Source: Balanoglossus misakiensis (Eukaryota > Animalia > Hemichordata). From it: a DNA stretch of 64,000 bases. The notes under the pieces are model-generated. The model was given only the letters and a program-made list of their open reading frames with translations, was not told where the DNA came from and did not search any database. Of this stretch, positions 4,427 to 51,128 are shown in pieces. The stretch's first letter is position 1. The number at the start of each line of letters is the position of its first letter. The stretch is taken from the NCBI GenBank assembly GCA_040954595.2, contig CM082598.2, forward strand, positions 6,277,097 to 6,341,096, written 5' to 3'. Position numbers and translations under genes: made by a program.

Positions 4427-4529
4427 ATCATTGATTTCATGTATTTAATTCTTTCATTCTTTTTTCTTCTGTAGGTCCCACCGGTACTCTTCTTCTTCTC
4501 TCTCTCTTTCTTTCTTTCTTTCTCTTTTT

Positions 4530-13797: not shown

Positions 13798-13798
13798 T

Positions 13799-15135: not shown

Positions 15136-15139
15136 CACC

Positions 15140-21300: not shown

Positions 21301-24300
21301 CAAAACGGGTTTGTCATCCTGCCTAACATGGTGTTCGTGTCCCGATTAACCAAATTTTATATTGTTCGCCACTTTTGTTGATCGTCATGGGCTGACCCCT
21401 AAGAACATTATTCTGGACAGCTGCATGTTGGCCTCAAACTATAACAGCACACCCAGAGTTGTGCTCACTCATCGACTCTAGAGTAACATTAAGTCTTCGT
21501 TGGGTGCATATGAACATTTGAAAGGCAAACGATAACAACGTGAATGAAAGCTCCGCAGAAATTAACATAATTTTCTAATCTGTCATCTTCGAAATAGTCA
21601 TAATCGGTAGTTGTGTTTATTATTAGTGAACAGGCTACCGGAAACATTGTCGTCGTTCGACAACAGCACGCCACCCAGACGGACAATACTGCTAAACAGC
21701 TGTCAGTAATGACGAGACACAATATACTATCACCTCCTCGAAAGAGATATAATCAGTAACTCCCCGTATCATTTTGAACAGCATGTATGCTGTTTACTGT
21801 GGTAAAGCGACTAAACGATATTGAAGTGAATAATAAAACGAAGGAAGGCCATGTAGTTATTTTCAAATTTTGGAAATGCCCTTTTTAATCTTTCGGACGA
21901 AATCACATAAAATATCCAAAGCACTAATAACGTTTGGCTGATGTAGAAACATTGGTATGTATGAGTCATCGTACAACGTCACATATACCATGTTATTATA
22001 CACCTACTGCTGTAACCTATGGAGTTCCGTAATACAATAATTCGCTGTATCACCGTACAATAATTATTCAAATGAGGACGCGGAGTCCAATAACACCAGG
22101 GTTATTGGACGCATTGTGACTTTGACCTCACAGGACTGGTGATCAATGTAAACAATGATGATATTAACCCTACTCTGACAAAAAATTATATAAAAAGTAC
22201 ACAGCCGTTATTTAACAAAATTATTGGTGACCCAAGATGCGAAATAAGTCAAAATCCACGCTGAAATTTCAGTCGAAGGAATCTGTGAACGAACAGGCGA
22301 GCGCGTTCATTTCAAGTTCCAGAACGAGCGCAAGCAGCGTAGAACGTCGCGCGCGAGACAGGCAGGTCGACACTAGCATCACCTGATGCGCGAGGTGAAG
22401 GCGCGTTCGATATGCAAATTACATCATGGCGGCGTCTGAAAACTAGAAAGTCCGATAGCGGCCAATTTATTCTTTGTCGTTAATGAAGAACGTTAATGAA
22501 GAATTGTCCTCGACGCTGCGCGTCTCGGACAATACTTGCGCTGCACGATGTACTCGGACATAAATCCCGGTATTTTGTGAATAACCTTATATAGTCCGAC
22601 ATGCACATGACACGAACAAGGCGATGTGCGATTGACGGAAAACTCCCTAATGATAAGTTGACGTTATTGACGTTTTATGCGAAAAAGACAGGTTATTCTG
22701 TGTGTCATGTCTTTTCTTTGACGGCACGCCTCGCATTGTGTGATGCGTGCTGTGCACCATTAAAGGTGTCATTCATTACAGTGTGTGAAAAGCATACCCA
22801 TCTCAGGTTTGTCCACCTTTTGTTGTTTTATGCTTTACCAGGGTACCAGTGACAAACTTAAGCAAGTAGAATATGCTACCACAAAACCCTTTTCGCACAT
22901 ATGAGTTTGGTATTGTGTTTCCGATCATCGGTAACACCTGTTAGATCGTGTGTAAAATCGAAGCAACTATTTTGGACAATGGCGTTTTGGGTCAGGGAGA
23001 AGTGTGATTTCAAAGCCGGTTATAATCAGAAAATGACCTCTTCTCAGTGTGTCTACTAAATTAATTAGGCGAAAAGACCCAGAAATGTGTGGCGGGGAGA
23101 AATTAAGCCTCTATTGGCTTGGCCTACAATACACCGCTCGGGTGTTGGCCATGTCTTAGTATCAAATATTGGGGAGCTGCAGGCAAATATCCGTGATCAC
23201 AGTCCCATGTGTTATAGGGACTGTGCCATGACTAGTCGATAATTTTCTAGCATGGCGTCTTATTGTTATAACTAGTAACCGTGTTCACACCTGCCCGTGT
23301 TCTTCAATAACCCATGGTCGCTCCACACAGACCGTGAATACTAGTAACCACAAGACTTTTGACAACAGTGCTTGCATATGTTCAGAAGGTCTGTACTTAA
23401 GTATCATACCCACGGGGGAACCTGACAAACGGAAATGGTTTTCATTGACTGATGTCGAGTCGTGTTGAGAACAACAAGTAAGTTACTGGGTGCACTCACT
23501 GGTAGAGAGCACCAGTTAATTGTGGTATAAGAATCAGTCGACTTCACAAACCTGTACGTCGTGAAGATGAAATATTGCAAGCGAAAGAAGATGGCAGAAG
23601 TAATTTTCAAGCTCATCATAGTTGTGTCAGAAGTTATGCTATGTTTGGACGGTCAACAGATTCAAGGTATGACAGAGCTTTAATGATATCTCTCAATAGG
23701 TAGTCATATCATCTTGTTCATGGTGGTAATAACTTATTTCCAGCATTTCATAATTACTCACACTTTCTTTCTTACTTTTTTTGACGCGAACACACAACCT
23801 CGCAGAAAAGCGTGAACTGGTCACGGTATCATCTCAACCAGCTGTTTATCGACTCGCGTATCTCATATATTCCACTCCGCTTAGAAATCAAGAAAATAAA
23901 TACACAATCAAGGAAACAGGAAAAATATTACTGCATGCTTGATTGGAAAAGAAACAAAATCGTATTATTGATTGCATAATTGCCGCATTGAACATAAAAG
24001 CGTGGTATTAAACATGTCACGTTTTGAACTGAGTCAACAGAATTTTTAGAAAATATCAGCGACTGCGTTTAAAAAAAGTCCGATTGCCGGTTCTTGAGTT
24101 CTCATTATCTAGCTAACATTGTGCTTGAAACTATGATGCAAGGAGATTATACCTGTTGCAAGGAAGTTGAGATGATCGGGGTTAAAATGCCGTGTGAACG
24201 CGTAGGCCCATAATTCCGCATGAAAAACTCTGTCCTCCGTCCCTGAGGGACGATGCTTTGTCCCATGTTCGTGTGATTCAATTCAATGCAATGTACTGAC

Positions 24301-24539: not shown

Positions 24540-26902
24540 ATCTTAACAAGCCAGCTGCGACATACTACTTACGCTTATCGAAGTGTTAACAACAAGATTC
24601 TCCAGAAATACGGCAAACGTGTGGACCGCATAATTCAATTGCGTAAAGATAAACTCGAAAGACACTTGACAGGACTCTTAAACCGAATAAACAGACATTT
24701 ATTACGCGAGGCTTTCAAAGTTCAAGGCACCAATAAGCAGCGAGATATAAAGGTCAGCACGGGAAGAATATCCGATGAGAAGATTCGAGATTTTGACGAA
24801 AAATTACAAGTCATTCACCGAAGGTTGACAGCAATATCATTCACCAGAATTCACGAGAAGGTTTAGTGAATTTTTGCAAAGACTTGTCAAACAAATACTC
24901 TTGTGCTCCTGATTCACTGATTGATCTGCTGTACTTCACTGTCTACAAACTTTAACAATGCATTATCAAAATGCAACAAGGGACCACTTTTCAGCATATT
25001 ATATGATTCTTTCTCGGTACGTGATTCGGTTACCTCAAGAAAATGTCTACTTGAAACCAGAGAGGCACCGTGGGACTGGCTCGTTACCAACTGCAACCAC
25101 GGGTTTTCACCGAAATATCGTGGTGATGCTGTGTTAGGGGATGCGCTCTACGGTTTGACACATACAGAAGAAGAACGTAAATTATTGTGCTTATCTTTCA
25201 CTACAACCACGCACTGTGATTCTTGTAATTACCGGAGGCAAAGAGATGTCAATCTACTACCAGTCGTTGTCGGTCATGCCGTCAATTCATCAAATAAAAC
25301 CGTCGGTCACCTAGTCACGGAAACACTTGGCGAACTGGCCATGCGATCTGAAAATAGACTCTGTCCTAGATGTAAAGGCTGTTCATTGACACCAAAAACA
25401 GATCACGTCCATGTTCCAGAGTTCCTTTTCGTGGAATTGCCCTTCGAAAATGACGTCAATGTCGCCAATATTTTGGTCGAAGAAAGCCTGTTACTATTTG
25501 AAGCTGAATTCGAGCTTGTTGGAGCAATCAGGGCAAAACCAAGACACTTCACGACAATAATAAAATACGAAGACAACTATTTTGAACTGGATGATTTGAA
25601 TGAATGCGGCAACAAACCAATCCACGGGAGTAATTTCAGTAACTTGATGCGTAAAATAACAGCCGGCACATCGCAAGAGACTGTATCTAATGTTTCAACT
25701 CAATATAGGACAGAACCTGGTAGCTTTCTACATGTCTTGCTTTTCAAGAGAAATTCAACACAACCATTGTCAAACAAATTTTAACAGCCGTCTGGACCGA
25801 GTATTCACGGTAAATTTGTATCACAGACGGACAATGTAGACTCAAACCCAGCAAAGTCGACATGGCCATTGACAGGGAACGCAAGTGAACGTTCACTCCA
25901 AGCAAAGACGGCAAGTTCTTCGACACAAACCAGGACAGATCCGTCATTAGCTAATGCTGTCAGCTCGGTACCAGTGAATTCAACGTGTTCATCAACCAAG
26001 ACAGATTCACTGTTAGTGGAGACAACCGGTCTTACTCCGAATAATTTAATGCGTTCATCGCAAGTGACAATGACAAATTTATCGAGATACCGACAAATAT
26101 GCCACCGGATTTCGACATATGGAACAAGCTCCGATCCAATCCAAAGGCGTGTGGCAGTAAAGTTTGAAGATTATGTTAAACGGAATGTCGCTGCAACAAA
26201 AATCCAAACACTCGTCCGTTGCTTTTTAGCAAGAAAACGCAGAAATCATCGCCAAATAATAGACAACGTTCTCTCCACCAAGGACAAGTATGATCAATTA
26301 TTTTCCAGATTTCATTTTTTCCTTTACGGAAGGATACCGTCAAGCGTTAAAATAAGGAAAGAAGAGTTTGCAGGACTGATTAAAGAACATGGTGGCCAGG
26401 TCGTAGAGAAATTACCAGCAAAGGGTGTAAACATGAAAGTTGTGATCTTGACTACGCAGTCTGACATAGATAAAGATCCACCAGGAGATGTCATTTGTTC
26501 AGCATACAGGAGAGACTGTAACCTTTTCCGTCACGAATTTGTAGTAGAATCAGTTCAAAATGCAAAGATTCAGGACTGTGATGCCTACAAACTGAACACC
26601 GATAAACTGGCTGCATCCCCACTTACAAGTGTTGTCAGTGTAAAGGAACTAACTCCAGAACAACTCCACTTTGGGTATGTATTGATGTCACTGTGTCGTG
26701 AAATTGTAATTGTACTGACGTAAACTTAACAGATAAATACAAAATTTGTCCTGCTTAAAATTTACTTATCTTCGTTTATCTTATAGAAAACAGATCTCCG
26801 GGATAACGCGAATAAGAAAAACACTACTTTTGAAGACAAAGAGAAAATTGTACGACATTGAAGAGACTGTGACTGATTCGGACAGCTGTAGAGATTATGA
26901 AG
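24540..26902 (+). pseudogene. Gene A: USP/peptidase-C19-like protease + Ser/Thr linker + IQ motif + BRCT domain (frameshifted)
   Basis: Off-frame Cys box GLVNFCKDLSNKYSCAPDS (24860-24916). ORF 24921-25784 has CxxC pairs CDSC and CPRC, His box HFTTIIK and ELDDL. A single TAA at 25782 is followed by in-frame continuation into AATKIQTLVRCFLARKR (IQ) and FSRFHFFLYG..LIKEHGGQVV..EFVVESV (BRCT). Probable GT-AG intron at ~26675-26786. Confidence 0.65.
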
Positions 26903-27770
26903 GTGAGAAATTGTTACGTAATTGTTTAAAGGAAATCCTATTGTTCAGCGGGAATCTTAACTCATAAAGTGTGTGGCACCTCCATGCTTAACTCCACCGA
27001 ATTCTACCATATATCCGTTCTAAAATAACCCCTGAATGAAATGCAATTTAACTTTCGACATGTTTGTATGTGCCTACGAGTATGGAGCGACAAGAAAAGA
27101 AGTTTAATTACGTAGGCGAATTATGTGAAAATGAGCCCGGGAGCCCCTGGGAGGTGCGTGCGTGACGTCATTGGCGATGCTGATGAGAATGATGGTGAGG
27201 AGGAGGATGAAGAAATGTGGGATGAAGTACTTGCATGGGCAAGAGAAGTCGAAATGACAGGATGTCCCAATAATATACGAGAACACGGAGCAAGTTCTGG
27301 AGTAGATCAGCCAAACAGTTGTATCACTGACTTCACTCTTGAAGAGGCCCTGCCAATACTAGAAAACCATGATGAATACTTTGCTTCTCTGCCACTTCAT
27401 TTCCAAGTCAAGTCCTTTCTCTAATCTCTGAAAGATACTTCAGTGTTTTCACTCAAGCCACATACCACAGCATAGCAGGTTAACACAATCTTGGAGGAAC
27501 TCGCATCCCAAGACAAAATGAGAGAGACAACCCACTATATAGAAAAACAGTGGACAACTATCTACCGCATCCTCAAAGCCAACTGTAAAGCTACTCCAGG
27601 AACTGTAGGAAGTCATGACCGTAAATCTTTCACAGCACATTTTGAACACCTACACAATTACCTGACTGATAATGCTGTTATGCAGTCATTTCAGAATTTA
27701 TGTGGCATTCCACTGTCATCCATCCATACAGAGTGTATGTCCACCATACTTCTTGGCATGAACAAGCTAA

Positions 27771-29804
27771 TTAGGGGACCAAGCGCCCTCAGGCGCTTGG
27801 TCCCCTTCTGTTATTGCTGGAGTTTTTCTTCTTTCTTCTTGAGTCGTTTTTTTGCTCCCGTTTTGCTCAAAATTCCCTGCTTCTACGCCTATGAAACTTG
27901 GCACGGTGGTTGAGTCCCATGAGTACTAGTGCACCTGCCCTTTGAATTTGTAATTAGTCACGTGACTTGGTGGCTATAATCGAGCGAAATTTTCAAATTG
28001 ACCTAATTTGCACGTTAATGGGGGCATGTACATTCTTTTCGCGATTTTCGTAGACCATGTGGCCAAAATCCCCTGTGCCAAATTTTTAGGTCCTAGGCCA
28101 CGTCGATTTTGAGAAGAAGATTTTTGTAATATTTTTCGCATTTTTTGGTGGGCTGAGGACAAACACTGGGGCATCGGACTTTGACCGTCATTACGTAATG
28201 TTGTGGAGATCTCATTAGCAGGAGGGTTGCAGTAGTCCTTTAAAAATCGGCTGAAATACGTAAACAGACCAGTGATTATTTTCCACGGAATGAATTTTGG
28301 GACAACACATTATCAGAGTTCAGGCTGTGTTAGGGCGATTAATTGAATTACGCTGAGTTTCTTAGCTGTTGCCGTTTAAATGTATCTCTGCAGCCCCGGC
28401 TACACCGGTTAACATTCAATGTAATGCGGCAGCGGACTTTGACCCTCAGTCGCTAATGTTGTGGGAGGTTTCATTAGCATTTAGGTGGTCACATGTAGTG
28501 GATAGTAGTTCGGGAAATTGGCCGAAATACATAAGCAGACCAGTGATTTCCTTGCACGAAGGGAGTATAGTACCATCAGAGATCAGGCTTCGTTGCCGTT
28601 CAAATGTTCCTACTTCAGTCGTGACGTTGCAACTGAACGTTCAGTATGGGGTTCGGCCCGCAGGTGGCCGTGGGGGTTATCAGGTCGCCCGTAATGGCAC
28701 GCAGCTTCATGCAGCTCTATGGGACCATGCGTAACTCTATTATGTGCATGCGTAATTGTGGGGTCAATGAAAGGGATGCTAGCATGGTATTTGTTGCACA
28801 TGGATCAATATGAAGTCCGATTTTCCTGTCAAGTTGTGGGCGACCTTATGTGATATTTCACCTACTTTTGCTTAGTGAATAACAGCAGATGCATGCAGCT
28901 TTGGCGTGGTGGGGGGGGGATATACGGATGGGACCATAATGATATACCAAAGGCGGGGTCACCCGTTGCACCTGCCGAAGTCATTGATTTTGTACATTTA
29001 ATTGGACACTAACCAACAGGGCGATATGTGTGGTTTTTGTTCCACACGGACGAATGTAAGTGTCAGTTGGTTTTTGCCCAAATGTATAAGGTGATTTGGA
29101 TGACCTCTGTCGTACAGTGCCATATCTCAGCACGTTGTGCAGGTGCAGCTTTGGTATTTGGAGGGATGAAACTATCATGAAATGCCAAATACATGGGGAT
29201 ACCTGTGACACCTGCTTGATTCATGTATTCCGTGCATACCTAATGGTAGGCGAAGTGAAAGGGCTGCAAATGTCGGATTTGTTGCACATGACATAAACAG
29301 GAATGAAAATTTTTTGTCAAATATTTGGTTGACCTCAGGTGTCCATTGACCTGCTTTCCATATGTTAGCATGCAAATCATATATAGCCAGGTGTTTGGAG
29401 GGGTAGGTAGGACCTCTGCGTCATGAAATGCTAAATTCCTGGGGCCACCTGTAACTTACTTGCGTAACTCATTTTATGGTCATATCTAATTTGACCAACC
29501 CAAAGGGCGAGGATTTTCCGTTGTCTTGAATATGAACCAAATAAGAATCAAAATTTTTGGTCCAATTTTTGGGTACCCTCAGCTGACCTTTGAAGTACTT
29601 ACTGAAGTACTTACAACGTAGAAGTTCACCTTTGGTTGTTGTTTTTGTACTTGTACGACATGCATTTCAGGTGGTTGCCTACTTCCCCATATCTCAACAT
29701 CGAGAGCAAATACAGCCTACGCATTTGAATGGTACAACCCTGAATGGAGTCTAATGGTTATTAACTCTATGCTTGGGCCCCTTCAATGCTGCTTGCAGCT
29801 TTAA
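27771..29804 (+). mobile_element. Complete Helentron-associated non-autonomous element (HINE-like), ~2.03 kb
   Basis: 5' perfect hairpin AGGGGACCAAGCGCC-CTCA-GGCGCTTGGTCCCCT (27773-27806), followed by a TTC-rich tract. 3' subTIR GCTTGGGCCCCT (29771-29782), hairpin GCTGC-TT-GCAGC and TTTAA. Inserted at a TT site; excision restores the host ORF. Confidence 0.85.
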
Positions 29805-30538
29805 TTATCCAAGAAGTTACAGATATTGCCAGAGCACAGTGGTCCCCAGGAGTGAATGATAATAGAGAGATACAGGATTCAGGGAAAGCCAAGGTCCGCT
29901 ATGTTGGGGGATGGGCTGTAACAAAGTGCCTCTATAAATACCGCAGGTATCTCTTGTCATACAGTTCCTCTCTTGTGCCCACAGTCCGCCAGCAGTTACA
30001 GAGACATTACCAGAAAAAAGACTTAGTTGAAAGTCTTGTCTAGTCTTCACAGTATGTACACGAACATTCCCAGCACAGAGAGACATTATCAGTAACTGAC
30101 TTCAAACAGTATGCACGTGGTGGGCTTCTCCACATCAGTGACTCTGCGTACAGTTTATTTTTAACATTGGAGAAAGAGAGAGCGTCACAGTAATTTCCAG
30201 AACCACAAATCAGACCTGATTGACTGGGCTAAAGAGTGTCTACTGAAGAATAGCTGTGTACGTGATCTATTCTCAGGTTTATTTGATCCAGTTGAAGAGG
30301 CGAAGGACTGTGCTGGATATATGTAGTCAGTTATGGGAGAAGTGTATTCTGATATTGTTCATCTCTATGTGAAGATGGGAGCAGGCCAGTTTCTGAGAGA
30401 CCAGAAGTGCTACATGCAGCTAAAGAAGACCGAAGCACACAGAAAGAAGGTAATGCAACGAGAGCATAAAGCAACGGAAAAGAATGCCAAGGTGGCCCTG
30501 GAAGTGATCAAGACAGACATCAGTGACGGGAAACATAC

Positions 30539-30725
30539 TGTTGAGAACAGTATGAATTAGTAATTATATATGTACGTTTACCCGCCCACTCTCTGGTATG
30601 TAACCACGCCCATTTGAAGGGCACGTGTAGAGCATGGTGCCGGTAATGAAGTAGAAGTTGCTTAGTGTTGTTACTTGACACACGTCTCCGTTCCATTCTC
30701 TAAGTACAATCGAACCCCGCGTGCA
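30539..30725 (+). repeat. BEL/Pao 5' LTR (two small deletions relative to the 3' LTR)
   Basis: Near-identical to 36424-36618. Lacks an ~8-bp GTGTTCCA segment and the terminal TTCAAGCACACA. Confidence 0.92.
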
Positions 30726-30729
30726 TTGA

Positions 30730-30747
30730 TGGTGCCGAGACCAGGAT
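30730..30747 (+). promoter_or_regulatory. Primer-binding site, probably tRNA-His
   Basis: TGGTGCCGAGACCAGGAT closely matches the complement of the animal tRNA-His 3' end as I recall it (TGGTGCCGTGACCAGGAT). Confidence 0.75.
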
Positions 30748-30764
30748 ACTGTACTTGAGACGAG

Positions 30765-32235
30765 ATGGATAATCTGGAACGAATGAAAAGGAGCAGAACC
30801 GCACACCGCGGGCAGATGACCAAGATTCTCAATCAATTAGACCAAGCTTTCGATGCCGCAAAATCAGAAGTCGACGAGACAATATTGGACGTCATCCACG
30901 CTAAGTTGGAAGTACCCTCCGCAAAACTACAGCACTTCCAAGATTTAGATAACAGCATCCTCGACAAGACAGATGATGAAGAGTTAGAAGAAGCCACAAC
31001 AAATACCGATGAATACCACAACGACGTCAAACAAAGGTTGGTCATTTTTCAGAGACATTTAAGTAGACTGAGCATGAAAGTCGGAAGAGGCGAGGAAACA
31101 AAGCTCAGTCCAACAGCGGCTTCGTTCATGCCAAATGTAACACAGACAACCTACAAGAACGTACAACTTCCAAAACTATCGTTAGCAAAGTTTTCCGGGA
31201 ATGTGCTGGAGTGGCAAAGTTTTTTCGATGGCTTCCTGGCTGCAGTACATAGTGACAAGAGCTTGAACGATGTTCAGAAATTACATTACTTGAGAGGACA
31301 ACTCTCTGGCAAAGCAGCTAGGGCCATCGAGCGACTTCAACTCACCGAAGCAAACTATTCGAATGCTATCGAAATCTTACGCGAACGATATGGTCGAGAC
31401 CACATTATAAAGGCTGCCTACATGAAGGCCCTTTGGGAACTGCCCACACCTAATGAAGACCTTGCGAGTATACGGGAATTTTACGACTCGATCGAAAGCT
31501 ACATTCGAGGTCTGAGATCGCTCGGAAAGGACGAATCGTCATACGGGGACCTGCTCGTGCCAATCATTATGGAGAAACTACCGGGTAGAATGCGCGAATT
31601 CATAGCCAGAGATCATGGTTCATCCCGCGAGTGGACACTACAGAAATTACGCGAGGCTATACAACGAGAAATAGATGCTATGGAAGCCGGACAATCGTTA
31701 TCCGCATTATCTATATCGCCGCTAAGCCACCATGAAACACAACCGCGCGCAACAGCCGCATTCTACACCAAAACAAAGTCTACACCGCGAAAATGCCCAT
31801 ATTGCAAAGAAGAATCGCACAACCCTCTTAACTGTAACAAGGTAACCACCGCAGATCAGCGATTAGAAATCGTAAAACGCGAACGCCTTTGCTTCAATTG
31901 CTTGGGTAACCATCGAGTTTCTCAGTGTAAGTCGAAAAACCGCTGCAGAAACTGTAAGCGAAAGCATCACACGTCGTTGTGTTCACCAACGCAATCCGCA
32001 GAAAAAAGGGACAGACAAGCTGAAACAGCAGAAGCTCCCACCACAGTTCACGCGAAATCGGTCTCGACAGTAGAAACCAACTCTCCTACCGACATGAGTC
32101 TCGCAACCGCAACGGACAGAGGAGCCGTGTTGTTGAAAACCGCCGTAGCGCAAGTCTCTAGCCCCTCAACAATCGCGACAGCTACGATACTGATCGACGA
32201 AGGAGCCACTAAGTCCTTCATCACACAAGATAGAA
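30765..32235 (+). CDS. gag: BEL/Pao Gag plus aspartic protease start (the ORF runs on out of frame to 32522)
   Basis: LPKLSLAKFSGNVLEWQSFFDGF (DUF1759-type). Three Cys-His knuckles: CPYC..H....C, CFNC..H....C, CRNC...HHTSLC. Protease motif ILIDEGATKSFIT. Confidence 0.9.
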
Positions 32236-32307
32236 TCAGACCGCTCACAAGTAATCGATCTTGCCGCATTTGGAGACACGAAAACCTCTGCGAGGTCTCT
32301 CAATCAA

Positions 32308-35300
32308 GTGACATTCTCATTGCACACTACTTCTGGATCGAAGCTAGATATTACCGCGCTAGTCGTGCCCAAAATATCGGCGCCCTTGAGGAATCTCATC
32401 AGCCCCTCTATATTAGAGCTACCGCATTTAAGGGGTTTGAACTTCGCGCACCCGCACTCAGATTCGGACACTTTCGAAATATCTATACTTCTCAGAGCCG
32501 ATTATTATTGGCAGTTGATTGAAGATGAGATCATCCGCGGAAAGGGGCCAACAGCTGTGAAATCGAAATTGGGATATCTTCTATCGGGACCGACTCACAC
32601 CCGCGATCTGAAAACAAACACCGTTCTGCACATCGCCACAGAGCTAAGACAGGAAGAATCGGATCTGAAAGCCTTTTGGGACTTAGAGACAATCGGCGTC
32701 AAGGGAGATCCCCAAATAAACGATAAAATGACAGGATATGAAACTTACTGCAAAGACAATATCGATTTCCAAGATGGCCATTACGTCGCCCGCCTTCCAT
32801 GGAAACCAGACCACCCACCCCTGCCAACAAACTACAAGATAACTAACAATCGCACGCGCGCCATGGTGAGAAGATTGGACATGGAGTCACGACTTGCGTA
32901 TGATAATATCATACAGGAACAAACACGAAAGGGGTTTATAGAATTAGTAACGGACGATCACACAACAGAAGGCCACTATCTTCCACATCATCCAGTTAAG
33001 AAGGATTCCGGAACAACTCCGATAAGAATCGTGTATGATTGCAGTTGCCAGGCAGGAAACGGAGCAAGTCTAAATGACTGTTTGTCGACAGGGGCTCCGC
33101 TACTGAACGATCTGACTTCGATATTGATTCGCTTTCGTATGCATCGGTTCGCACTGTCGGCAGACATAGAGAAAGCCTTTCTACAGATCGGGTTACACAA
33201 CGAAGACCGCGACTATACGAAGTTTTTATGGCCATCGGACTACCGCGATCCGGAAAGCAAGTTTGACGTTTACCGTTTCAAGACAGTTTTGTTTGGTGCA
33301 GTGTCGTCGCCCTTCATTTTAAACGCGGTCATCCAAACACACCTGGACTCAAATATCTCAAACGTGTGTCGCGACATCAAAGAAAACATCTACGTCGATA
33401 ACGTCTTGAGTGGAGTAGACACTGAAGATGATGCGTGTGATTACTACAGTGAAGCCAAGTCGGTAATGGATAAGGGCGGTTTCAATCTCCGTTCGTGGGC
33501 CTCGAACTGTTCGGAATTACGCGACCTAGCGAAGCAGCATCAGGATTTAGACAACGACACAACGGTGAATGCCTTCGGCCTACTTTGGAACACTGAGTCT
33601 GATGCAATTTCGTACAAACGAAAGGAACTTGACAACGGAAATCTGGTAACTAAGAGAGAAATCGTCCGCAACACCGCAAAGATGTATGACCCGCTTGGAC
33701 TTCTCGCGCCTATACTAGTGAAGGCAAAATGTCTCATTCAAGAAGTTTGGAAACAAAATGTACAATGGGACGAACCACTACCGCAAATTCTGAGTGACAC
33801 TTGGACGAACATACGCAGAGACTTACTTACCGCAACAGATGAGTTCTCGATCAACAGGAAATACTTCGAATGCCAGGCTAATTGTCAAGAACCTTATGAA
33901 TTACATGTGTTTGCAGATGCCAGTGTCAAGGCGTACGGTGCCGTCGCTTATCTTTGCCATGGCAACAACACTGCTCTTGTCATGTCCAAGACTAGAGTTG
34001 CCCCAACAAAGCCCATCACGCTTCCACGCCTGGAATTGCTGGCCGCGTTGATTGCAGCCCGCCTGTTGAAATTCATCCGAAATAGCCTCATGCAGCAGGG
34101 AAACATCAAAATCACACAGTGCGTCTTATGGTCCGACAGCCAAATAGTATTACACTGGATTAACAGCCGTCGAACTTTACCAACTTTCGTTGGGAACCGC
34201 GTACGAGAAATCAAATCAACACCAGTGGATGTGTTTAATTATTGCCCTACTGACAGCAATCCGGCGGACATTATCACACGTGGAATCGCCGCTTGTAAAC
34301 TACGTGAGAATGCACTATGGTGGACCGGCCCATATTGGCTGAAAAACGGTGAATGGCCCGCGTCAACTGTCAACTTCAATGCAGCCGCTATTGATGAACG
34401 CGACCAAGCTCAGATCACCGGGTCATTTGAGGCCATCGCTACTCCGCGTCGCCATGGTGACACGTGTGAAGACATAGCGACTGTTATACACGCGACTCGC
34501 TATAGCTCATACGCCAAACTGTTACGTATTACCGCTCACGTGAGAAGATTCGTTTCAAACTGCAGAAAAGCCCGCGATAAAAGAAATGTCGGACCTATCT
34601 CAGGTACAGGAATACGCGACGCTGAGAGAATGTGGATTTTGAGCGTTCAGCGAAGGCATTACAGTAGTGAAATCGATTTACTACAGTCAGAGAAAGGCAA
34701 ATTGGGAACTTTGGCCAAGCAGCTTGGCCTATTCATGGATGATCAAGAACTGATCCGCGTCGGAGGTAGACTTCATAACTCACCTCTGGACTATGATACA
34801 AAGTTTCCCGCACTGCTACCAGCGAAGGAACATTTCACACAGCTACTTATAGCAGATGCACACAAGAAAGTCGCGCATGGAGGGCTAACCTCGACGGTTA
34901 CGTATATCCGCAAACGGTTCTGGATCACCAAAATAAGGCAGGTAGTGAAGACCTATCTACGAAACTGTGTCACGTGTAGGAGAATCCATAGCAAACCCTT
35001 CAAAGCTCCAGTAACCGCACCACTTCAGACACTCAGACTGTTAGAAGCCCCGCCGTTTACAGTGACTGGCGTGGACTTCACTGGGGCGTTCTACGTGAAG
35101 GAAGAAAGGGGTGGATGCAAAGCCTACGCCTGTCTGTTCACGTGCGCAGTTACGCGTGCCGTTCATCTGGAGCTAGTACATGACTTGTCGACGCAAAGTT
35201 TCCTCCGCGCCTTCCGTCGGTTTTCAGCGAGACGATCGACACCACGCTACATGATTTCCGACAACGCGACAACATATGAATGTGCAGCAGATGAACTACA

Positions 35301-36123
35301 ACGACTTTTTGAGTCTCCTGTTGTCAAGACGTATTTGGCTGACAACAGAATTGACTGGAAATTCATACCAAAGCGTGCCCCATGGTTTGGGGGATTTTAC
35401 GAGCGATTAATAGGCATCACGAAAACCGCACTGAAGAAAGTACTTGGGCGGTCCTTTGTTACGTTCGACGAACTACAAACTGTTTTGACGGAAGTCGAAG
35501 CAATCATCAATGATCGTCCTCTCACTTATACGTCCACAAATCACGGAGACCCGCAGCCGCTGACGCCGTCTCACTTGTTACATGGCAGACAACTTACAGG
35601 GTTGCCCTATGACACGCCTGACATCGACGAAATGAAGGATCCGACATATGGGATCACCAAGTCAGCGCTACAAACTCGTGCGGATTACCTGGCCAAGTTG
35701 CATTTCTGGCAGAGATGGTCGAGGGAATATTTGACATCACTTCGTGAAAGAGACATGGTGAAAAGGGAAGGACGAACAGAGAACGTCATCAATGTCGGCG
35801 ATGTCGTTTTAGTTGAGGACAGCCGTACACCACGTATGAAATGGAACTTAGCAGTAGTGGAAGGATTGAATTACGGCAATGACAATCTTGTGCGATCTGC
35901 CAAAATAAAAACTCGGTATGGCCGTACTAATCGCCCTATTAGGAAACTGTATCCGATTATGGAACTTGCCGTCAAAACTGACACTGACAGAGCTGACTCT
36001 GAAATTGACAATGACAAGGCTGGTACAAATGGACAAGTAAACCATGCCCAGCCCGATAGAATTAGTCGTGCCGCAGCAGTGAAGGCACGTGACCGTATCA
36101 AAAAATGGTCGTATGCTCTGTGA
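32308..36123 (+). CDS. pol: BEL/Pao Pol (protease C-terminal part, RT, RNase H, integrase)
   Basis: YLPHHPV, ADIEKAFLQI, YVDN, ELHVFADAS, LPRLELLAA, WSDSQ, H..H..C..C, GVDFTG, SDNAT, GGFYER, FWQRWSREYL. Frameshifted from gag near 32230. Confidence 0.95.
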   Translation: MTFSLHTTSGSKLDITALVVPKISAPLRNLISPSILELPHLRGLNFAHPHSDSDTFEISILLRADYYWQLIEDEIIRGKGPTAVKSKLGYLLSGPTHTRDLKTNTVLHIATELRQEESDLKAFWDLETIGVKGDPQINDKMTGYETYCKDNIDFQDGHYVARLPWKPDHPPLPTNYKITNNRTRAMVRRLDMESRLAYDNIIQEQTRKGFIELVTDDHTTEGHYLPHHPVKKDSGTTPIRIVYDCSCQAGNGASLNDCLSTGAPLLNDLTSILIRFRMHRFALSADIEKAFLQIGLHNEDRDYTKFLWPSDYRDPESKFDVYRFKTVLFGAVSSPFILNAVIQTHLDSNISNVCRDIKENIYVDNVLSGVDTEDDACDYYSEAKSVMDKGGFNLRSWASNCSELRDLAKQHQDLDNDTTVNAFGLLWNTESDAISYKRKELDNGNLVTKREIVRNTAKMYDPLGLLAPILVKAKCLIQEVWKQNVQWDEPLPQILSDTWTNIRRDLLTATDEFSINRKYFECQANCQEPYELHVFADASVKAYGAVAYLCHGNNTALVMSKTRVAPTKPITLPRLELLAALIAARLLKFIRNSLMQQGNIKITQCVLWSDSQIVLHWINSRRTLPTFVGNRVREIKSTPVDVFNYCPTDSNPADIITRGIAACKLRENALWWTGPYWLKNGEWPASTVNFNAAAIDERDQAQITGSFEAIATPRRHGDTCEDIATVIHATRYSSYAKLLRITAHVRRFVSNCRKARDKRNVGPISGTGIRDAERMWILSVQRRHYSSEIDLLQSEKGKLGTLAKQLGLFMDDQELIRVGGRLHNSPLDYDTKFPALLPAKEHFTQLLIADAHKKVAHGGLTSTVTYIRKRFWITKIRQVVKTYLRNCVTCRRIHSKPFKAPVTAPLQTLRLLEAPPFTVTGVDFTGAFYVKEERGGCKAYACLFTCAVTRAVHLELVHDLSTQSFLRAFRRFSARRSTPRYMISDNATTYECAADELQRLFESPVVKTYLADNRIDWKFIPKRAPWFGGFYERLIGITKTALKKVLGRSFVTFDELQTVLTEVEAIINDRPLTYTSTNHGDPQPLTPSHLLHGRQLTGLPYDTPDIDEMKDPTYGITKSALQTRADYLAKLHFWQRWSREYLTSLRERDMVKREGRTENVINVGDVVLVEDSRTPRMKWNLAVVEGLNYGNDNLVRSAKIKTRYGRTNRPIRKLYPIMELAVKTDTDRADSEIDNDKAGTNGQVNHAQPDRISRAAAVKARDRIKKWSYAL

Positions 36124-36423
36124 AACTGATTTGAACTGAGAAGTAATGTTTCACAGCAATGAACATCGTTCAGTTTGTATTAGTTAATGTAAACTGCAGT
36201 TCCTTTTCGGGAGCAAGTTACTAGTATATTGTTTGAAAGCTGTTTGTTTCATATTGATTCTGTGACCGTTAACGTAAACATGTTAGATTTTCATCTGTCG
36301 TTAAACTTCGATAGTTAGATTCAATTCGAGTAACAAGGTCGACATCTGTTTAGAATTAGGCTTTATAGCAACCAACTGATTGATCTGAGTTTCTGTCGCC
36401 AACCATTTCGGCGGGCGGAGTGA

Positions 36424-36631
36424 TGTTGAGAACAGTATGAATTAGTAATTAGTGTTCCATATATGTACGTTTACCCGCCCACTCTCTGGTATGTAACCAC
36501 GCCCATTTGAAGGGCACGTGTAGAGCATGGTGCCGGTAATAAAGTAGAAGTTGCTTAGTGTTGTTACTTGACACACGTCTCCGTTCCATTCTCTAAGTAC
36601 AATCGAACCCCGCGTGCATTTCAAGCACACA
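36424..36631 (+). repeat. BEL/Pao 3' LTR (208 bp)
   Basis: TGTTGAGAAC...AAGCACACA. Contains AATAAA and is followed by the TSD CATAC. Confidence 0.93.
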
Positions 36632-37241
36632 CATACCTCACACTCATTGATCAGCGCCAGAGTGATAGAAAACCCACAGTATTCGACTGTACACCAACGA
36701 TGAATTAAAGACTTTGTTTGGATTGTATAACCTAAGATACATTCAAAGCTACAGTACGAGTAAACTAAATGATATTCTGGTAAAAAAATAAGGGATTGTG
36801 ACAGAATTCCTAGACATGAAAGACTGAATTGAACTTTCATGCACAAATGGCCTTCATGAAATCAGACAAGTGTACAAGTTTAATTGTAAATTGATGACTG
36901 TGTATTTACATGCTCTATCTACATAACATTTTCTTGCATTGAAATCATTTGAAACTATATTTTTGTATGAAAACATTTGAAAAGACAAATTGGGTATACA
37001 AATAATGAATTCTTATATAGAAAACATACTACTCATGTCATATTGTGCTATTATTAAATATATGTCCAAGATTTCATTTACAAGTCAGTCATCTCTGCTC
37101 AATGTTCATTTACATTATCTATATAAGGGACTTGGTTTGTATTTTACGTATCAGATCTGTACAAATCTCAGGCGGTGCTTTCAAAGTTTGTTAAGAAAAC
37201 AAACCAAAATGCTTCAGATTTTTATGAACTTTTCAGTGACT

Positions 37242-38648
37242 TTACTCATCAACATCACTGTGTTTCCTCTTACCATTAAGAGCAATTGGCTTAAAGAGGG
37301 GCATGAAGTCCAAATTACCAGTGTTGCTTTTCTTTGTCATTGTGGTTTGTCCTAAACATATGGCATTAATTCCTGAACCATACTGTGCATACTGGGGATT
37401 TGCGTTTTGTCCATTTTTGCCTCGCTGTTGACAGAACACATTTTCAACCAGATTACTTTTTGTCCGGGCAGCTACAACTCCACTACCCAGATTCCTTAGG
37501 AAGCTGATTTCACAAATTTCCTTGAATCCAAGAACCATAGAATGTATATCAAACCTTGTCTGATCTGACAGTAACTTCTTATTTTTCTGAGATGCAGACT
37601 CCTGTAATGAATTCGCTCTCCTTTCCCACTGCTTAAAAAACTCCAAAATCTTATCGTTTTCTGTCAAACGTGGGTCTTGAATACAGTAATAAAGCCTCAT
37701 ATCTGTGAAATTTGCAATCATTTTGCTAGTGTTGTCCAATAGCTCAACTGTGGCACTGATGTCTTTACACTCAATTTCTGATGCACCCTGTTGTACACGA
37801 AATTTCTTGAACTCCTGTAGTAAAATACAAGAAAGTCCATTGCGTTACAGCAATAAAACAGTATTTCCGATACATAAACATCTCAAATTGCAAAAATACA
37901 ATGATGTCACAAATGTCACATGTAATTGTAGGCATTTAGTATACGCATAACATATAGCATACTGGCTAAAATATTTTTATTCCTGACTTATAGAATCATG
38001 AAAAGTGACCAAGTTATTGTATTGGAAAAATTGAAAAATAATTTTACCTTCATAAGATACAACATGTCCTTGTTCAAAACTTGTTCTGCCAAGTGTTTGC
38101 GCATACGTGATGCTGGATTCAAATCAAAATGGCCTGGTTTCAACACATGGTGAAGAGGGAGGGTGTGGGTTTCTTGATCAAATCTGTATGCATCTTTCCA
38201 GTGCCGCCACAAAATCTTGCCTTCTCCATTCCAGTCCGGGTTGCCTTTGTAGCTTCGGAACTCTTTTCAATGCCATTGCGAATTTTCTTGAAGTTGTGCT
38301 GAAACAAAAATTTTATACTGCAATTATACAACTTTCAAACTTTGGTATATGAGAATCATTGAACAAATTGTAAGTTTTGACAGACAGATCATTATTATGA
38401 TAAAATAAATATAATTTTGTGTTTTGGTAATTATAATGGTCTGTGTAGTATGCCTTTGTGTAGTGTGCTAGTGTGGATCATATGTATGACAATTGAAGCG
38501 TCTTGCCATTATGCTACTTACCCAATGATCCATACAGAACATCATAGGCTCACAGGTGTAGATATTCAATGTTGTGAAATTTTCTTCAGCTGGTTCCTCA
38601 TCTTTAAAATGCATTTGAACAAATGAGCAATTGGCTTGACCCCCACCA
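37242..38648 (-). pseudogene. Gene C: spliced P-element/THAP9-like transposase, 5'-truncated by the satellite
   Basis: Exons ~38648-38522 (GGGQANCSF...FCMDHW), 38298-38048 (HNFKKIRN..ILWRHW..HFDLNPASRMRKHLAEQVL; one frameshift) and 37814-37242 (LLSDQT..SNLVENVFCQQRGKNGQNANP). GT-AG introns. Motifs match P-family DxxHxxKxxRN, the GTP-binding insertion and ENxFxxxR..NP. Confidence 0.8.
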
Positions 38649-41600
38649 TTTTTTGATAAAAATCATGGGTTATAGCTCATGAAAATCACCCAAAAATGAA
38701 AATTTTTCGACTTTGCGAAATTTCAATATTTATCCATTTTTTTGATAAAATCATGGGTTATAGCTCACGAAAATCATCCAAAAATTTTTCGACTTTGCGA
38801 AATTTCAATATTTATCCATTTTTTTGATAAAAATCATGGGTTATAGCTCATGAAAATCACTCCAAAATGACAATTTTTCGACTTTGCGAAATTTCAATAT
38901 TTATCCATTTTTTGATAACAATCATGGGTTATAGCTCATGAAAATCACCCAAAAATGACAATTTTTCGACTTTGCGAAATTTCAATATTTATCCATTTTT
39001 TGATAAAAATCATGGGTTATAGCTCATGAAAATCATCCAAAAATGAAAATTTTTCGACTTTGCGAATTTTAAATATTTATCCATTTTTTGATAAAAAATC
39101 ATGGGTTATAGCTCATCAAAATCACCCAAAAATGACAATTTTTCGACTTTGCGAAATTTCAATATTTATCCATTTTTTTGATAAAAATCATGGGTTATAG
39201 CTCATGAAAATCACCCAACTATGACAATTTTTTGACTTTGCGAAATTTCAATATTTATCCATTTTTTTGATAAAAATCATGGGTTATAGCTCATGAAAAT
39301 CACCCTAAAATGACAATTTTTCGACTTTGCGAAATTTCAATATTTATCTATTTTTTGATAAAAATCATGGGTTATAGCTCATGAAAATCACCCAAAAATG
39401 ACATTTTTTCGACTTTGCGAATTTTAAATATTTATCCATTTTTTGATAAAAATCATGGGTTATAGCTCATGAAAATCACCCAAAAATGACAATTTTTCGA
39501 CTTTGCGAAATTTCAATATTTATCCATTTTTTTGATAAAAATCATGGGTTAGAGCTCATGAAAATCATTCAAAAATTACAAATTTTAGACTTTGCGAATT
39601 TTAAATATTTATACATTTTTTGATGAAAATCATGGGTTATAGCTCATGAAAATCACCCAAAAATGACAAGTTTTCCACTTTTCGAATTTTCAAAATTTCT
39701 TCATTTTTTGAAAAAATCATGGGTTATAGCTCATGAACATCATCCAAAAATGACAATTTTTCGACTTTGCGAAATTTCAATATTTATCCATTTTTTGATA
39801 AAAAATCATGGGTTATAGCTCATCAAAATCACACAAAAATGACAATTTTTCGACTTTGCGAAATTTCAATGTTTATCCATTTTTTTGATAAAAATCATGG
39901 GTTATAGCTCATGAAAATCATCCAAAAATGACAATTTTTCGACTTTGCGAATTTTAAATATTTATCCATTTTTTGATAAAAATCATGGGTTATATAATAG
40001 CTCATGAAATTCACCCCAAAATGACAATTTTTCGACTTTGCGAAATTTCAATATTTATCCATTTTTTGATAAAAATCATGGGTTATAGCTCATGAAAATC
40101 ATCCAAAAATGACAATTTTTTCGACTTTGCGAAATTTCAATATTTATCCATTTTTTGATAAAAATCATCGGTTATAGCTCATGAAAATCATCCAAAAATG
40201 ACAATTTTTCGACTTTGCGAAATTTCAATATTTATCCATTTTTTGATAAAATCATGGGTTATGGCTCACGAAAATCATCCAAAAATGACAATTTTTCGAC
40301 TTTGCGAATTTTCAATATTTATCCATTTTTTGATAAAAATCATGGGTTATAGCTCATGAAAATCATCCAAAAATGACACATTTTCGACTTTGCGAAATTT
40401 CAATGTTTATCCATTTTTTTTATAAAAATCATGGGTTATAGCTCATGAAAATCATCCAAAAATGACAATTTTTCGACTTTGCGAATTTTCAATATTTATC
40501 CATTTTTTGATAAAAATCATGAGTTATAGCTCATGAAAATCATCCAAAAATGACAATTTTTCGACTTTGCGAAATTTCAATATTTATCCATTTTTTGATA
40601 AAAATCATGGGTTATAGCTCACGAAAATCATCCAAAAATGACAATTTTTAGACTTTGCGAAATTTCAATGTTTATCCATTTTTTTGATAAAAATCATGGG
40701 TTATAGCTCATGAAGATCATCCAAAAATGACAATTTTTCGACTTTGCGAAATTTCAATGTTTATCCATTTTTTTGATAAAAATCATGGGTTATAGCTGAC
40801 GAAAATCATCCAAAAATGACAATTTTTCGACTTTGCGAAATTTCAATGTTTATCCATTTTTTGATAAAAATCATGGGTTATAGCTCATGAAAATCACCCA
40901 AAAATGACAATTTTTCGACTTTGCGAATTTTCAAAATTTCTTCATTTTTTGACAAAATCATCAGTTATAGCTCATGAAAACTATCCAAAAATGACAATTT
41001 TTCGACTTTGCGAAATTTCAATATTTATCCATTTTTTGATAAAAATCATGGGTTATAGCTCATGAAAATCACCCAAAAATGAAAATTTTTTGACTTTGCG
41101 AAATTTCAATATTTATCCATTTTTTGATAAAAATCATGGGTTATAGCTCATGAAAATCACCCAAAAATGAAAATTTTTCGACTTTTCGAAATTTCAATGT
41201 TTATCCATTTTTTGATAAAAATCATGGGTTATAGCTCATGAAAATCACCCAAAAATGACAATTTTTCGACTTTGCGAAATTTTAATATTTATCCATTTTT
41301 TGATAAAAATCATGGGTTATAGCTCATGAACATCACCCAAAAATGACAATTTTTCGACTTTGCGGAATTTCAATATTTATCCATTTTTTGATAAAAATCA
41401 TGGGTTATATATATATGAAAATTACACAAAAATGACAATTTTTCGATTTTGCGAATTTTCAAAATTTCTTCATTTTTTGAAAAAATCATCAGTTATAGCT
41501 CATGAAAATCATCCAAAAATGACAATTATTCGACTTTGCGAAATTTCAATATTTATCCATTTTTTGATAAAAATTATGGGTTATAGCTCACGAAAATCAC

Positions 41601-43791
41601 CCAAAAATGACAATTTTTCGACTTTGCGAAATTTCAATATTTATCCATGTTTTGATAAAAATCATGGGTTATAGCTCACGAAAATCACCCAAAAATGACA
41701 ATTTTTCGACTTTGCGAAATTTCAATATTTATCCATTTTTTGATGAAAATCATGGGTTATAGCTCATGAAAATCACCCAAAAATGACAATTTTTCGACTT
41801 TGCGAAATTTCAATATTTATCCATTTTTTGATAAAAATCATGGGTTATAGCTCACGAAAATCATTCAAAAATGACAATTTTTCGACTTTGCGAATTTTAA
41901 ATATTTATCCATTTTTTGATAAAAATCATGGGTTATAGCTCATGAAAATCATCCAAAAATGACAATTTTTCGACTTTGCGAAATTTCAATATTTATCCAT
42001 TTTTTGATAAAAACCATGGGTTATAGCTCATGAAAATCACCCAAAAATGACAATTTTTTGACTTTGCAAAATTTCAATATTTATACATTTTTTGATAAAA
42101 ATCATGGGTTATATATATATATGAAAATCACACAAAAATGACAATTTTTCGACTTTGCGAATTTTCAAAATTTCTTCATTTTTTGAAAAAATCATCAGTT
42201 ATAGCACATGAAAATCACCCAAAAATAACAATTTTTTGACTTTGCGGAATTTCAATATTTATCCATTTTTTGATAAAAATCATGGGTTATATATATATGA
42301 AAATTACACAAAAATGACAATTTTTCGACTTTGCGAATTTTCAAAATTTCTTCATTTTTTGAAAAAATCATCAGTTATAGCTCATGAAAATCATCCAAAA
42401 ATGACAATTATTCGACTTTGCGAAATTTCAATATTTATCCATTTTTTGATAAAAATCATCGGTTATAGCTCATGAAAATCATCCAAAAATGACAATTTTT
42501 CGACTTTGCGAAATTTCAATATTTATCCATTTTTTGATAAAAATTATGGGTTATAGCTCATGAAAATCATCCAAAAATGACAATTTTTCGACTTTGCGAA
42601 ATTTCAATATTTATCCATTTTTTGATAAAAATCATGGGTTATAGCTCACGAAAATCACCCAAAAATGACAATTTTTCGACTTTGCGAAATTTCAATATTT
42701 ATCCATTTTTTGATGAAAATCATGGGTTATAGCTCATGAAAATCACCCAAAAATGACAATTTTTCGACTTTGCGAAATTTCAATATTTATCCATTTTTTG
42801 ATAAAAATCATGGGTTATAGCTCACGAAAATCATTCAAAAATGACAATTTTTCGACTTTGCGAATTTTAAATATTTATCCATTTTTTGATAAAAATCATG
42901 GGTTATAGCTCATGAAAATCATCCAAAAATGACAATTCTTCGACTTTGCGAAATTTCAATATTTATCCATTTTTTGATAAAAACCATGGGTTATAGCTCA
43001 TGAAAATCACCCAAAAATGACAATTTTTTGACTTTGCAAAATTTCAATATTTATACATTTTTTGATAAAAATCATGGGTTATATATATATATGAAAATCA
43101 CACAAAAATGACAATTTTTCGACTTTGCGAATTTTCAATATTTATCCATTTTTTGATAAAAATCATGGGTTATAGCTCATGAAAATCACCCAAAAATGAA
43201 AATTTTTCGACTTTTCGAAATTTCAATGTTTATCCATTTTTTCATAAAAATCATGGGTTATAGCTCATGAAAATCACCCAAAAATGACAATTTTTCGACT
43301 TTGCGGAATTTCAATAATTATCCATTTTTTGATAAAAATCATGGGTTATATATATATGAAAATTACACAAAAATGACAATTTTTCGACTTTGCGAATTTT
43401 CAAAATTTCTTCATTTTTTGAAAAAATCATCAGTTATAGCTCATGAAAATCATCCAAAAATGACAATTATTCGACTTTGCGAAATTTCAATATTTATCCA
43501 TTTTTTGATAAAAATCATCGGTTATAGCTCATGAAAATCATCCAAAAATGACAATTTTTCGACTTTGCGAAATTTCAATATTTATCCATTTTTTGATAAA
43601 AATTATGGGTTATAGCTCATGAAAATCATCCAAAAATGACAATTTTTCGACTTTGCGAAATTTCAATATTTATCAATTTTTTGATAAAAATCATGGGTTA
43701 TAGCTCACGAAAATCACCCAAAAATGACAATTTTTCGACTTTGCGAAATTTCAATATTTATCCATTTTTTGATGAAAATCATGGGTTATAG
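38646..43791 (+). repeat. 88-bp AT-rich tandem satellite, left segment
   Basis: Monomer ATTTATCCATTTTTTGATAAAAATCATGGGTTATAGCTCATGAAAATCACCCAAAAATGACAATTTTTCGACTTTGCGAAATTTCAAT, repeated head to tail. Confidence 0.98.
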
Positions 43792-44324
43792 TGTTACGAT
43801 CTGTATAAAGGTCAAATACGATTTCAAGGGTTAATTAATCCAGAGCTCGGGAATGTCAATGTTTGATAGTATTTGATTTTATGTATTTGAAGTAGATAGG
43901 GAGAGCGGGTGTTTAACTGACTGCTCTGATTCTCAATCATCACCGAACTGACTTTGTTATATAACACTTTATGGAAATTGGTACGTATAGAGTTGACTGA
44001 TGTCCAATGAAATTGTAACACATTGTATTTGTGATATTTTACATTATTAACCACGCCTTGAGAAAAGTAATTATAAGAGAACTTTGTTTCCAAAGTTGAA
44101 AAAAGAAATAATCTAACGGGAGATGGGAGTACCTCAGGCTACTGAGCTTGTTCCCTTCCTCATGTACTTTACTGGGCGTATTTGATGTACTGGAGTAGTT
44201 CTGGACAATAAATGAACGTGAATCAGATACGTGTCTCCGTGGATCACTGTTCTCGTCAGAGCCCGATACCTCATCGCTACAGATTCCCCAATGCATGAAC
44301 AATCATGAGAAACCAGCCATAATA
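43792..44324 (+). repeat. Gypsy 5' LTR
   Basis: TGTTACG...CCATAATA; a direct repeat at offset 6804. Confidence 0.96.
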
Positions 44325-44326
44325 CA

Positions 44327-44344
44327 TGGTGGAGATACGTGGGT
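44327..44344 (+). promoter_or_regulatory. Primer-binding site, probably tRNA-Ala
   Basis: TGGTGGAGAT, 2 nt after the LTR, is complementary to the ...ATCTCCACCA end of eukaryotic tRNA-Ala. Confidence 0.65.
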
Positions 44345-44401
44345 AGACGAAACAAATCCATCGGAGACAGAAACGGCGACGTCCAGCGGAAAGATTACAG
44401 C

Positions 44402-50582: not shown

Positions 50583-50595
50583 AAAAGGAGGGGAG
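50583..50595 (+). promoter_or_regulatory. Polypurine tract
   Basis: AAAAGGAGGGGAG immediately before the 3' LTR. Confidence 0.9.
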
Positions 50596-51128
50596 TGTTA
50601 CGATCTGTATAAAGGTCAAATACGATTTCAAGGGTTAATTAATCCAGAGCTCGGGAATGTCAATGTTTGATAGTATTTGATTTTATGTATTTGAAGTAGA
50701 TAGGGAGAGCGGGTGTTTAACTGACTGCTCTGATTCTCAATCATCACCGAACTGACTTTGTTATATAACACTTTATGTAAATTGGTACGTATAGAGTTGA
50801 CTGATGTCCAATGAAATTGTAACACATTGTATTTGTGATATTTTACATTATTAACCACGCCTTGAGAAAAGTAATTATAAGAGAACTTTGTTTCCAAAGT
50901 TGAAAAAAGAAATAATCTAACGGGAGATGGGAGTACCTCAGGCTACTGAGCTTGTTCCCTTCCTCATGTACTTTACTGGGCGTATTTGATGTACTGGAGT
51001 AGTTCTGGACAATAAATGAACGTGAATCAGATACGTGTCTCCGTGGATCACTGTTCTCGTCAGAGCCCGATACCTCATCGCTACAGATTCCCCAATGCAT
51101 GAACAATCATGAGAAACCAGCCGTAATA
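50596..51128 (+). repeat. Gypsy 3' LTR
   Basis: TGTTACG...CCGTAATA. I see only two substitutions relative to the 5' LTR. Confidence 0.96.

Follow-up and report, generated by a model that had tools for sequence, protein, structure and literature searches.

A stretch of 64,000 nucleotides from the hemichordate Balanoglossus misakiensis (assembly GCA_040954595.2, contig CM082598.2, positions 6,277,097 to 6,341,096 of the forward strand), referred to here as the window, contains a dead and decayed DNA transposon of the P superfamily with two genes. Gene C, on the minus strand, belongs to a family of P-type transposases whose C-terminal helical domain is not on their own chain. Gene B, convergent to it on the plus strand, carries a domain with the predicted fold of exactly this C-terminal domain (CTD), and in its intact form it is a PIF1 helicase fused to the CTD-like domain, often with a tail of a helix-extension-helix (HeH)-like segment and a PHD finger. 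At the level of the family, the split between transposase and CTD is real.

Transposase core and C-terminal domain in separate genes

Three pieces of gene C are left in the window, all on the minus strand. The last exon (37242..37823) encodes the second half of the GTP-binding insertion and the catalytic Glu, reads VENVF..QRG..GQNANP with 64% and 61% identity to the intact homologues P0001 and P0002, and has its stop codon 66 residues downstream of the Glu, close to the roughly 65 codons after ENVF given by a first-pass annotation made from the letters alone. The middle exon (HNFKKIRN ... MRxHLA; 38048..38298) has a frameshift near 38233 and was aligned by tblastn to residues 604-688 of P0001 in two frames. 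A further exon fragment (38522..38644) corresponds to P0001 563-603 with 66% identity and starts directly after the position of the second catalytic Asp (DGGQAN in P0001). No gene C sequence 5' of this fragment was found in the window, and the Glu is the only catalytic residue left.

The assignment to the P superfamily comes from the intact homologues. P0001 and P0002 match PF21787 above its cut-off (E 9e-10), while PF21789 was matched by eight of 38 aligned members of the C family and PF21788 weakly by two (best E 0.002). A structural model of P0001 was poor overall (mean pLDDT 54) and good over about residues 570-800. Among 48,161 chains, it came closest to the core chain of the P transposase structure from Drosophila, 6p5a_A (Z 15.2, root-mean-square deviation (rmsd) 3.9, 238 aligned residues; next chain Z 6.2), with residues 505-812 aligned to 6p5a_A 206-532, including the helical GTP-binding insertion within the RNase H fold. 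GTP binding by this insertion is putative. Foldseek placed 6pe2_A and 6p5a_A first, and a sequence search of solved structures with P0001 gave no match. As a side observation, residues 50-88 of P0001 show a weak match to an RFX winged helix (E 0.058), at the place where P elements carry a THAP domain.

The chain ends shortly after the catalytic Glu throughout: 66 residues follow it in the window, 66 and 65 in P0001 and P0002, and 51-66 in nine of 13 transposase-bearing loci from metagenome contigs, namely those with the motif in a stop-free frame. Since P0001, P0002 and the nine loci stop alike, the early stop characterises the family and does not result from damage or a missed exon. In agreement with the first-pass annotation, which saw no YIAGY/GGLxxPS region in gene C, neither Y[IVL][AG]G[YWF] nor GGLxx[PI]S occurs in any minus-strand frame of 36631-38700. 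A profile of the B core also gave no match under E 2 on the C strand of the transposase-bearing loci. An extra 3' exon of C was considered and is ruled out by this result together with the conserved stop in the annotated intact homologues, none of which has a CTD exon of its own.

Gene B of the window is colinear with residues 461-936 of P0004, its closest intact homologue (45-53% identity), in four pieces (27302-27772, 29786-30187, 30192-30538 and 36638-36826). Its 5' remnant (27116..27773, plus strand) comprises an acidic linker and a helical domain, contains two in-frame stops (27422 and 27473) and is 45% identical to P0004 residues 461-613 (tblastn, E 3e-37). The CTD-like domain follows at 29808..30538 (plus strand), interrupted by stops at 30041 and 30324 and a frameshift near 30187, with KVRYVGGW (29900), RGGLLHISD (30116), a third helix (about 30330-30400) and a basic helix. 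YVGGW and RGGLLHIS are in the same frame, separated by a single stop, and the six frames of the whole window contain no other match to the two motif patterns, which bears out the earlier claim that CTD-type motifs sit in the convergent gene. The frameshifted 3' end (36637..36830, plus strand) corresponds to P0004 residues 871-936 and holds the helix-extension-helix (SAP/HeH-like) tail at 36684-36788, which is 69% identical over 35 amino acids to the tail of P0004, where the model has two helices (423-432 and 443-456). The first-pass annotation had placed this tail correctly at about 36690-36790, whereas little supports its SAP/HeH label: of 12 proteins scanned, one matched PF12949 (HeH), at E 0.13, and the window piece gave no match. 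Its interval for the whole arrangement, 29880..37450, likewise located the motifs correctly and misjudged the extents, as about 6.1 kb of it is a BEL/Pao element and gene B starts further left, at 27116.

Neither the B nor the C pieces of the window gave a P-family match in Pfam. Relatives were retrieved by a HMMER search but not by word-index homologue searches with two pieces of B. The closest named relatives of the two genes are likewise from hemichordates, Ptychodera flava (XP_070552284.1 and XP_070556109.1) and Glandiceps talaboti (XP_077998932.1).

The fold of the B domain was approached through its family. A 129-residue B piece, with one stop read as X, retrieved 213 proteins at E<=0.001, and 149 of the best 150 were aligned (alignment A1), the repeat protein P0012 being left out as a false match; most aligned members are fragmentary and short. 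Built on these 149 sequences, a model of the final 466 residues of P0004 reached a mean pLDDT of 90.7. Among 48,161 chains, this model was closest to 6p5a_B, which represents the CTD in the same Drosophila transposase structure (Z 10.2, rmsd 2.7), covering 118 of its 118 residues (617-734); the next chain reached Z 6.6. A structural similarity of B to the P-transposase CTD, which the first-pass annotation had expected, is thus predicted by the model. The conserved blocks of the family (KVRYVGGWA; GL.HI.D..F..F..LE; a third helix) occur in the same order as the CTD consensus blocks ALEYIAGYVARKL, SRGGLIKPSDAFLNFLKKLE (SRGGLIKPSD..F..LE) and third helix in a preprint (bioRxiv 10.64898/2026.08.31.747927). 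ESM Atlas gave no usable match for the B core, and three scans of viral contigs yielded no relatives.

In P0004, the CTD-like domain is preceded by a PIF1 helicase (PF05970, E 3e-36), the acidic linker and the helical domain, and followed by the helix-extension-helix tail. PF05970 was also found in open reading frames (ORFs) of the related loci (E 2.5e-30 and 3.5e-26). Among the 149 aligned members, PIF1 occurs in nine, a Pif1 2B domain in 14 and a C-terminal PHD finger in nine. Four of eight proteins have all six PIF1 motif patterns (Walker A/B and motifs III-VI) and the rest at least three. The fusion is no artefact of gene models because Walker A, motif V and KVRYVGGW share a single ORF of 815-849 residues, as seen in five of 12 loci checked. 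A comparison of 152 B-family proteins with the catalytic core of the transposase gave no match in any of them; the best E, 4e-4, was to a coiled-coil region. The proposal that core and CTD are encoded as two proteins is supported, and neither of the two outcomes named in the first-pass annotation as refuting it was seen. In intact elements, however, B is the C-terminal half of a PIF1 fusion and not a stand-alone DNA-binding module. This identifies a family of unnamed 'PIF1-like' animal proteins as transposon genes and not host helicases or pieces of Helitrons.

Two conserved genes within one pair of inverted repeats

A scan of metagenome contigs with 18 proteins chosen from the B family yielded 59 loci (31 groups at 85% identity) with intron-bearing genes of animal type. 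PIF1 lies upstream of the B CTD in 49 of the 59. A C-type transposase is present in 13, in all of them downstream and on the opposite strand, convergent with PIF1-B. Expressed by sequence group, these are 10 of 31, and of the 17 loci that offer 2 kb or more of space for it, 12 have the transposase.

Both genes are enclosed by inverted repeats in L033 (4116-4793 and 13796-14466; 678 bp, 93%) and in L001 (97-98%), that is, in two of 11 loci examined, the other nine being truncated or not spanning both ends. A common terminus starting with CACAGGCRGCCCA lies 0.65-1 kb upstream of the helicase in L003, L010, L018 and L033, which belong to four groups; five of 12 rows have this start, and the rest are internal or at contig ends. 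Two conserved genes thus lie within one pair of inverted repeats, in convergent order in many loci. In L033, 9 bases outside the shared terminal motif (4116-4124 and 14458-14466) are inverted copies of each other and not a direct target duplication; they are either a longer terminus in the family of L033 or a target preference.

Helicase, CTD and transposase are under purifying selection. The ratio of nonsynonymous to synonymous substitution rates (dN/dS) was 0.10-0.39 for the helicase (six pairs), 0.16-0.24 for the transposase (three pairs) and 0.12-0.25 for the CTD core in seven of eight unsaturated pairs. The pairs are non-independent, saturated ones were excluded, and values for the middle region (470-640) are unreliable since codons were paired via a distant reference. 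Identities of B and C across 10 loci were correlated (Spearman 0.53, 43 pairs, permutation p 0.038), which is not used as support because the result is largely driven by the window as an outlier.

Proposed joint action, rival explanations and known systems

PIF1 helicases move in the 5'-to-3' direction. It is somewhat more probable than the contrary that the CTD of B fills the CTD site of the transposase in trans and thereby brings the helicase to the transposon ends for joint work with C. In such a complex, C would cut and join through its RNase H core and GTP-binding insertion, and the CTD of B would lie where the tethered CTD lies in the Drosophila complex, gripping target DNA and the looped single-stranded end from a position between RNase H and the other subunit's GTP-binding domain. 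Docked there, it would park the helicase at the ends, and the motor might unwind or remodel these long ends, or assist in dismantling the complex and in gap repair. With its HeH-like and PHD tails, B may also be anchored on DNA and chromatin. The CTD of the Drosophila structure is on a disordered linker, packs against the other subunit and makes many DNA contacts of its own, including transposon and target (PMC7776569); by analogy, a split by cutting such a linker would be an easy step. A broader version, in which a widespread animal lineage of the P superfamily forms two-protein transpososomes with the CTD in trans docking a PIF1 motor that is required for end processing or disassembly, is put forward more tentatively and has less than an even chance.

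A number of observations weigh against this explanation or parts of it. According to the preprint, CTD-deleted Drosophila P transposase and THAP9 still excise and integrate (bioRxiv 10.64898/2026.08.31.747927), and therefore C may not need B. No THAP domain was detected in P0001, P0002 or five N-terminal ORFs of the loci, where first exons may be absent. Five of the 17 loci with room gave no transposase match; one of these, L012, is 99% identical to L013, and its contig ends before the transposase. No 8-bp target duplication was found at L033, the sole locus with both ends and flanks. The CTD core reached a dN/dS of 0.99 in one pair. The window copy itself has no termini or terminal inverted repeats that could be found, and a helicase profile gave no match in its six frames. 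Identity between B and 6p5a_B is 10% in an all-helical fold, and for helical bundles a Z under about 13 may reflect a common arrangement. Foldseek on the B model, which the first-pass annotation had proposed as a check, returned nothing at E<=0.001; the sequence profile of A1 did not find the P transposase, and no P CTD was among the Pfam matches listed for the B family. A complex prediction with P0001 375-879 and the CTD region of P0004 scored 0.00 twice, run on a non-cognate pair without alignments and without DNA, and counts neither for nor against the proposal.

The low identity, the helical fold and the silent searches, along with a spacing of 70 residues between the two motifs, could also mean that the helical domain of B resembles the P CTD by chance, B being a captured helicase gene and C having merely lost its CTD. 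This is very improbable, as the top of 48,161 chains is the very domain that the neighbouring enzyme lacks, fully covered and 3.6 Z above the next, and the motif order of B agrees with the published CTD consensus. The main rival is that the same split left no joint complex: C would transpose alone, and the CTD of B would bind ends or target-like DNA so that the donor site is repaired or copied with the aid of the helicase. The dispensability of the CTD for excision and integration and its many own DNA contacts in the Drosophila structure both speak for this, as does the frequency of accessory helicases and nucleases in DNA transposons, such as RecQ in KolobokH and Kolobok-1_CCri (PMC9587614). 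It is nevertheless rather unlikely, given that the transposase core is in none of 152 B-family proteins and the CTD in no C-family member seen; such complementary loss and gain in every case examined is what a split with a preserved common function would give.

A further alternative concerns only the window copy, which might come from a helicase-less sub-lineage instead of having lost its helicase by deletion or insertion. In the place taken by the helicase in intact elements lies a broken gene A (24492 to about 26723-26964, plus strand), directly upstream of B and on its strand, with a USP-like papain-fold peptidase, IQ and BRCT (BRCT_2 E 3.5e-10; IQ E 6e-4; ESM Atlas USP-like 0.96, in unnamed eukaryotic clusters), which would then be cargo or the N-terminus of B. 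The absence of any helicase trace would agree with this, and so would a contig (25339-27260) that spans the A-B boundary in X1, one of two sequencing runs (X1 and X2) of one other sample carrying this locus. Against it, P0004 as the closest homologue of B has the helicase, neither the 59 loci nor the proteins of the B family contain a match to gene A, and B of the window begins in the acidic linker that trails the helicase in P0004. The helicase-less origin is accordingly improbable, and loss of the helicase from the window copy is preferred.

With the Drosophila P element transposase (6P5A/6PE2) and THAP9, the system shares the RNase H core, the GTP-binding insertion, the D/D/E positions and a domain of predicted CTD fold, and terminal inverted repeats starting with CA in the related loci are a further likeness to P elements. 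In its action, the element would resemble a P element equipped with an accessory helicase. Unlike in the P element and THAP9, the CTD belongs to a second gene that faces the transposase and joins it to PIF1, and no THAP domain was detected; the inverted repeats span several hundred bases versus 31 in the P element.

Other transposons also have two genes. Harbinger/PIF elements encode a transposase and a Myb protein, and ProtoRAG encodes RAG1L and RAG2L in convergent order, the second proteins being unrelated to the transposase. Two genes inside inverted repeats are common to these and the present family, which shares its convergent order with ProtoRAG. In contrast, the second protein here carries a piece of the usual architecture of the transposase itself, and a joint requirement for both proteins would follow by analogy.

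Kolobok elements (KolobokH and Kolobok-1_CCri) are cut-and-paste transposons with a helicase, once on the complementary strand, but they belong to another superfamily, their helicase is RecQ of superfamily 2, and the accessible part of PMC9587614 reports no transposase part moved onto it. Helitron RepHel also bears a PIF1-family helicase, there fused to an HUH Rep (PMC8788227), whereas the partner here is a DDE transposase in trans. Among the matches listed for P0004 and the locus ORFs there was no HUH Rep, and the helicase sits at the N-terminus. Its start lies 0.3-1 kb inward of an inverted-repeat terminus in L003, L010, L018 and L033, so that no room is left for a Rep. A Helitron origin of the helicase locus was rejected on architecture, by the N-terminal helicase and the inverted repeats.

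No P element that carries PIF1 or has its CTD split off was found in the literature searched, which covered sources other than Repbase Reports and most subscription journals, or by word look-ups in PMC8788227 and PMC6431247. The family may already be catalogued in those remaining sources, perhaps without the link to the CTD. The CTD contacts transposon and target DNA in the structure solved by cryo-electron microscopy (PMC7776569), yet it is dispensable in the one preprint, and disassembly of the P transpososome has, according to a review, not been investigated (PMC7776569). The natural move of the CTD to a helicase makes both its role and disassembly testable part by part. It also offers a route from a one-protein transposase to a two-gene system, which is relevant to the rise of systems of the ProtoRAG and Harbinger type.

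Decay of the window copy and neighbouring repeats

The window copy is dead because its helicase is absent, stops and frameshifts interrupt its genes, two insertions lie in B, and C is cut at a satellite. The first insertion (27774..29807) is non-coding and high-copy, covered at hundreds of times the depth of the sequence around it. TAATTA borders it left and right, and each end forms a hairpin. By its anatomy, it is a candidate Helentron/DINE-1-like element. A relative with related ends lies near 3789-4430. Contigs of X1 and X2 pass from 27773 directly to 29808, reaching just 17 letters past the joint.

The second insertion is a BEL/Pao long terminal repeat (LTR) retrotransposon (30539..36631, about 6.1 kb, plus strand) with Pfam matches to DUF1759, Peptidase_A17, RVT_1 and DUF5641. 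It is flanked by a 5-bp target duplication, CATAC (30534-30538 and 36632-36636), and its LTRs are identical at 188 of 192 aligned bases. A 1547-bp contig of X1 joins 29996-30532 to 36631-37640 and so reaches the last exon of C without the LTR element. Contigs of the other sample align without gaps over the frameshifts near 30187 and 38233, which means that the LTR retrotransposon entered a copy that was already defective.

Gene C is cut by an array of an 88-bp satellite (38646..43791; 58 copies, 91% matches) that starts exactly at the codon position of the second catalytic Asp, and a contig of X1 (38135-38687) spans this boundary. The 5' part of gene C may be beyond the window or deleted. The same satellite occupies 51129-64000, amounts to about 200 copies in all and is very abundant in X1 and X2.

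The window is animal DNA dense in repeats. Inside the 88-bp satellite lies a Gypsy-type LTR element (43790-51128) with a chromodomain integrase and LTRs that are 99.6% identical over 535 bp. A second satellite with a period of about 192 bp covers 7057-13798 in about 34 copies. A broken transposase of the pogo/Tigger type (16738-18400, minus strand; DDE_1 E 3.5e-10) adjoins a fragment of a Gypsy-type reverse transcriptase (14690-16532, minus strand). A high-copy insertion of about 600 bp (21992-22592) is skipped by contigs of X1 and X2 and is thus a polymorphic element resembling a miniature inverted-repeat transposable element.

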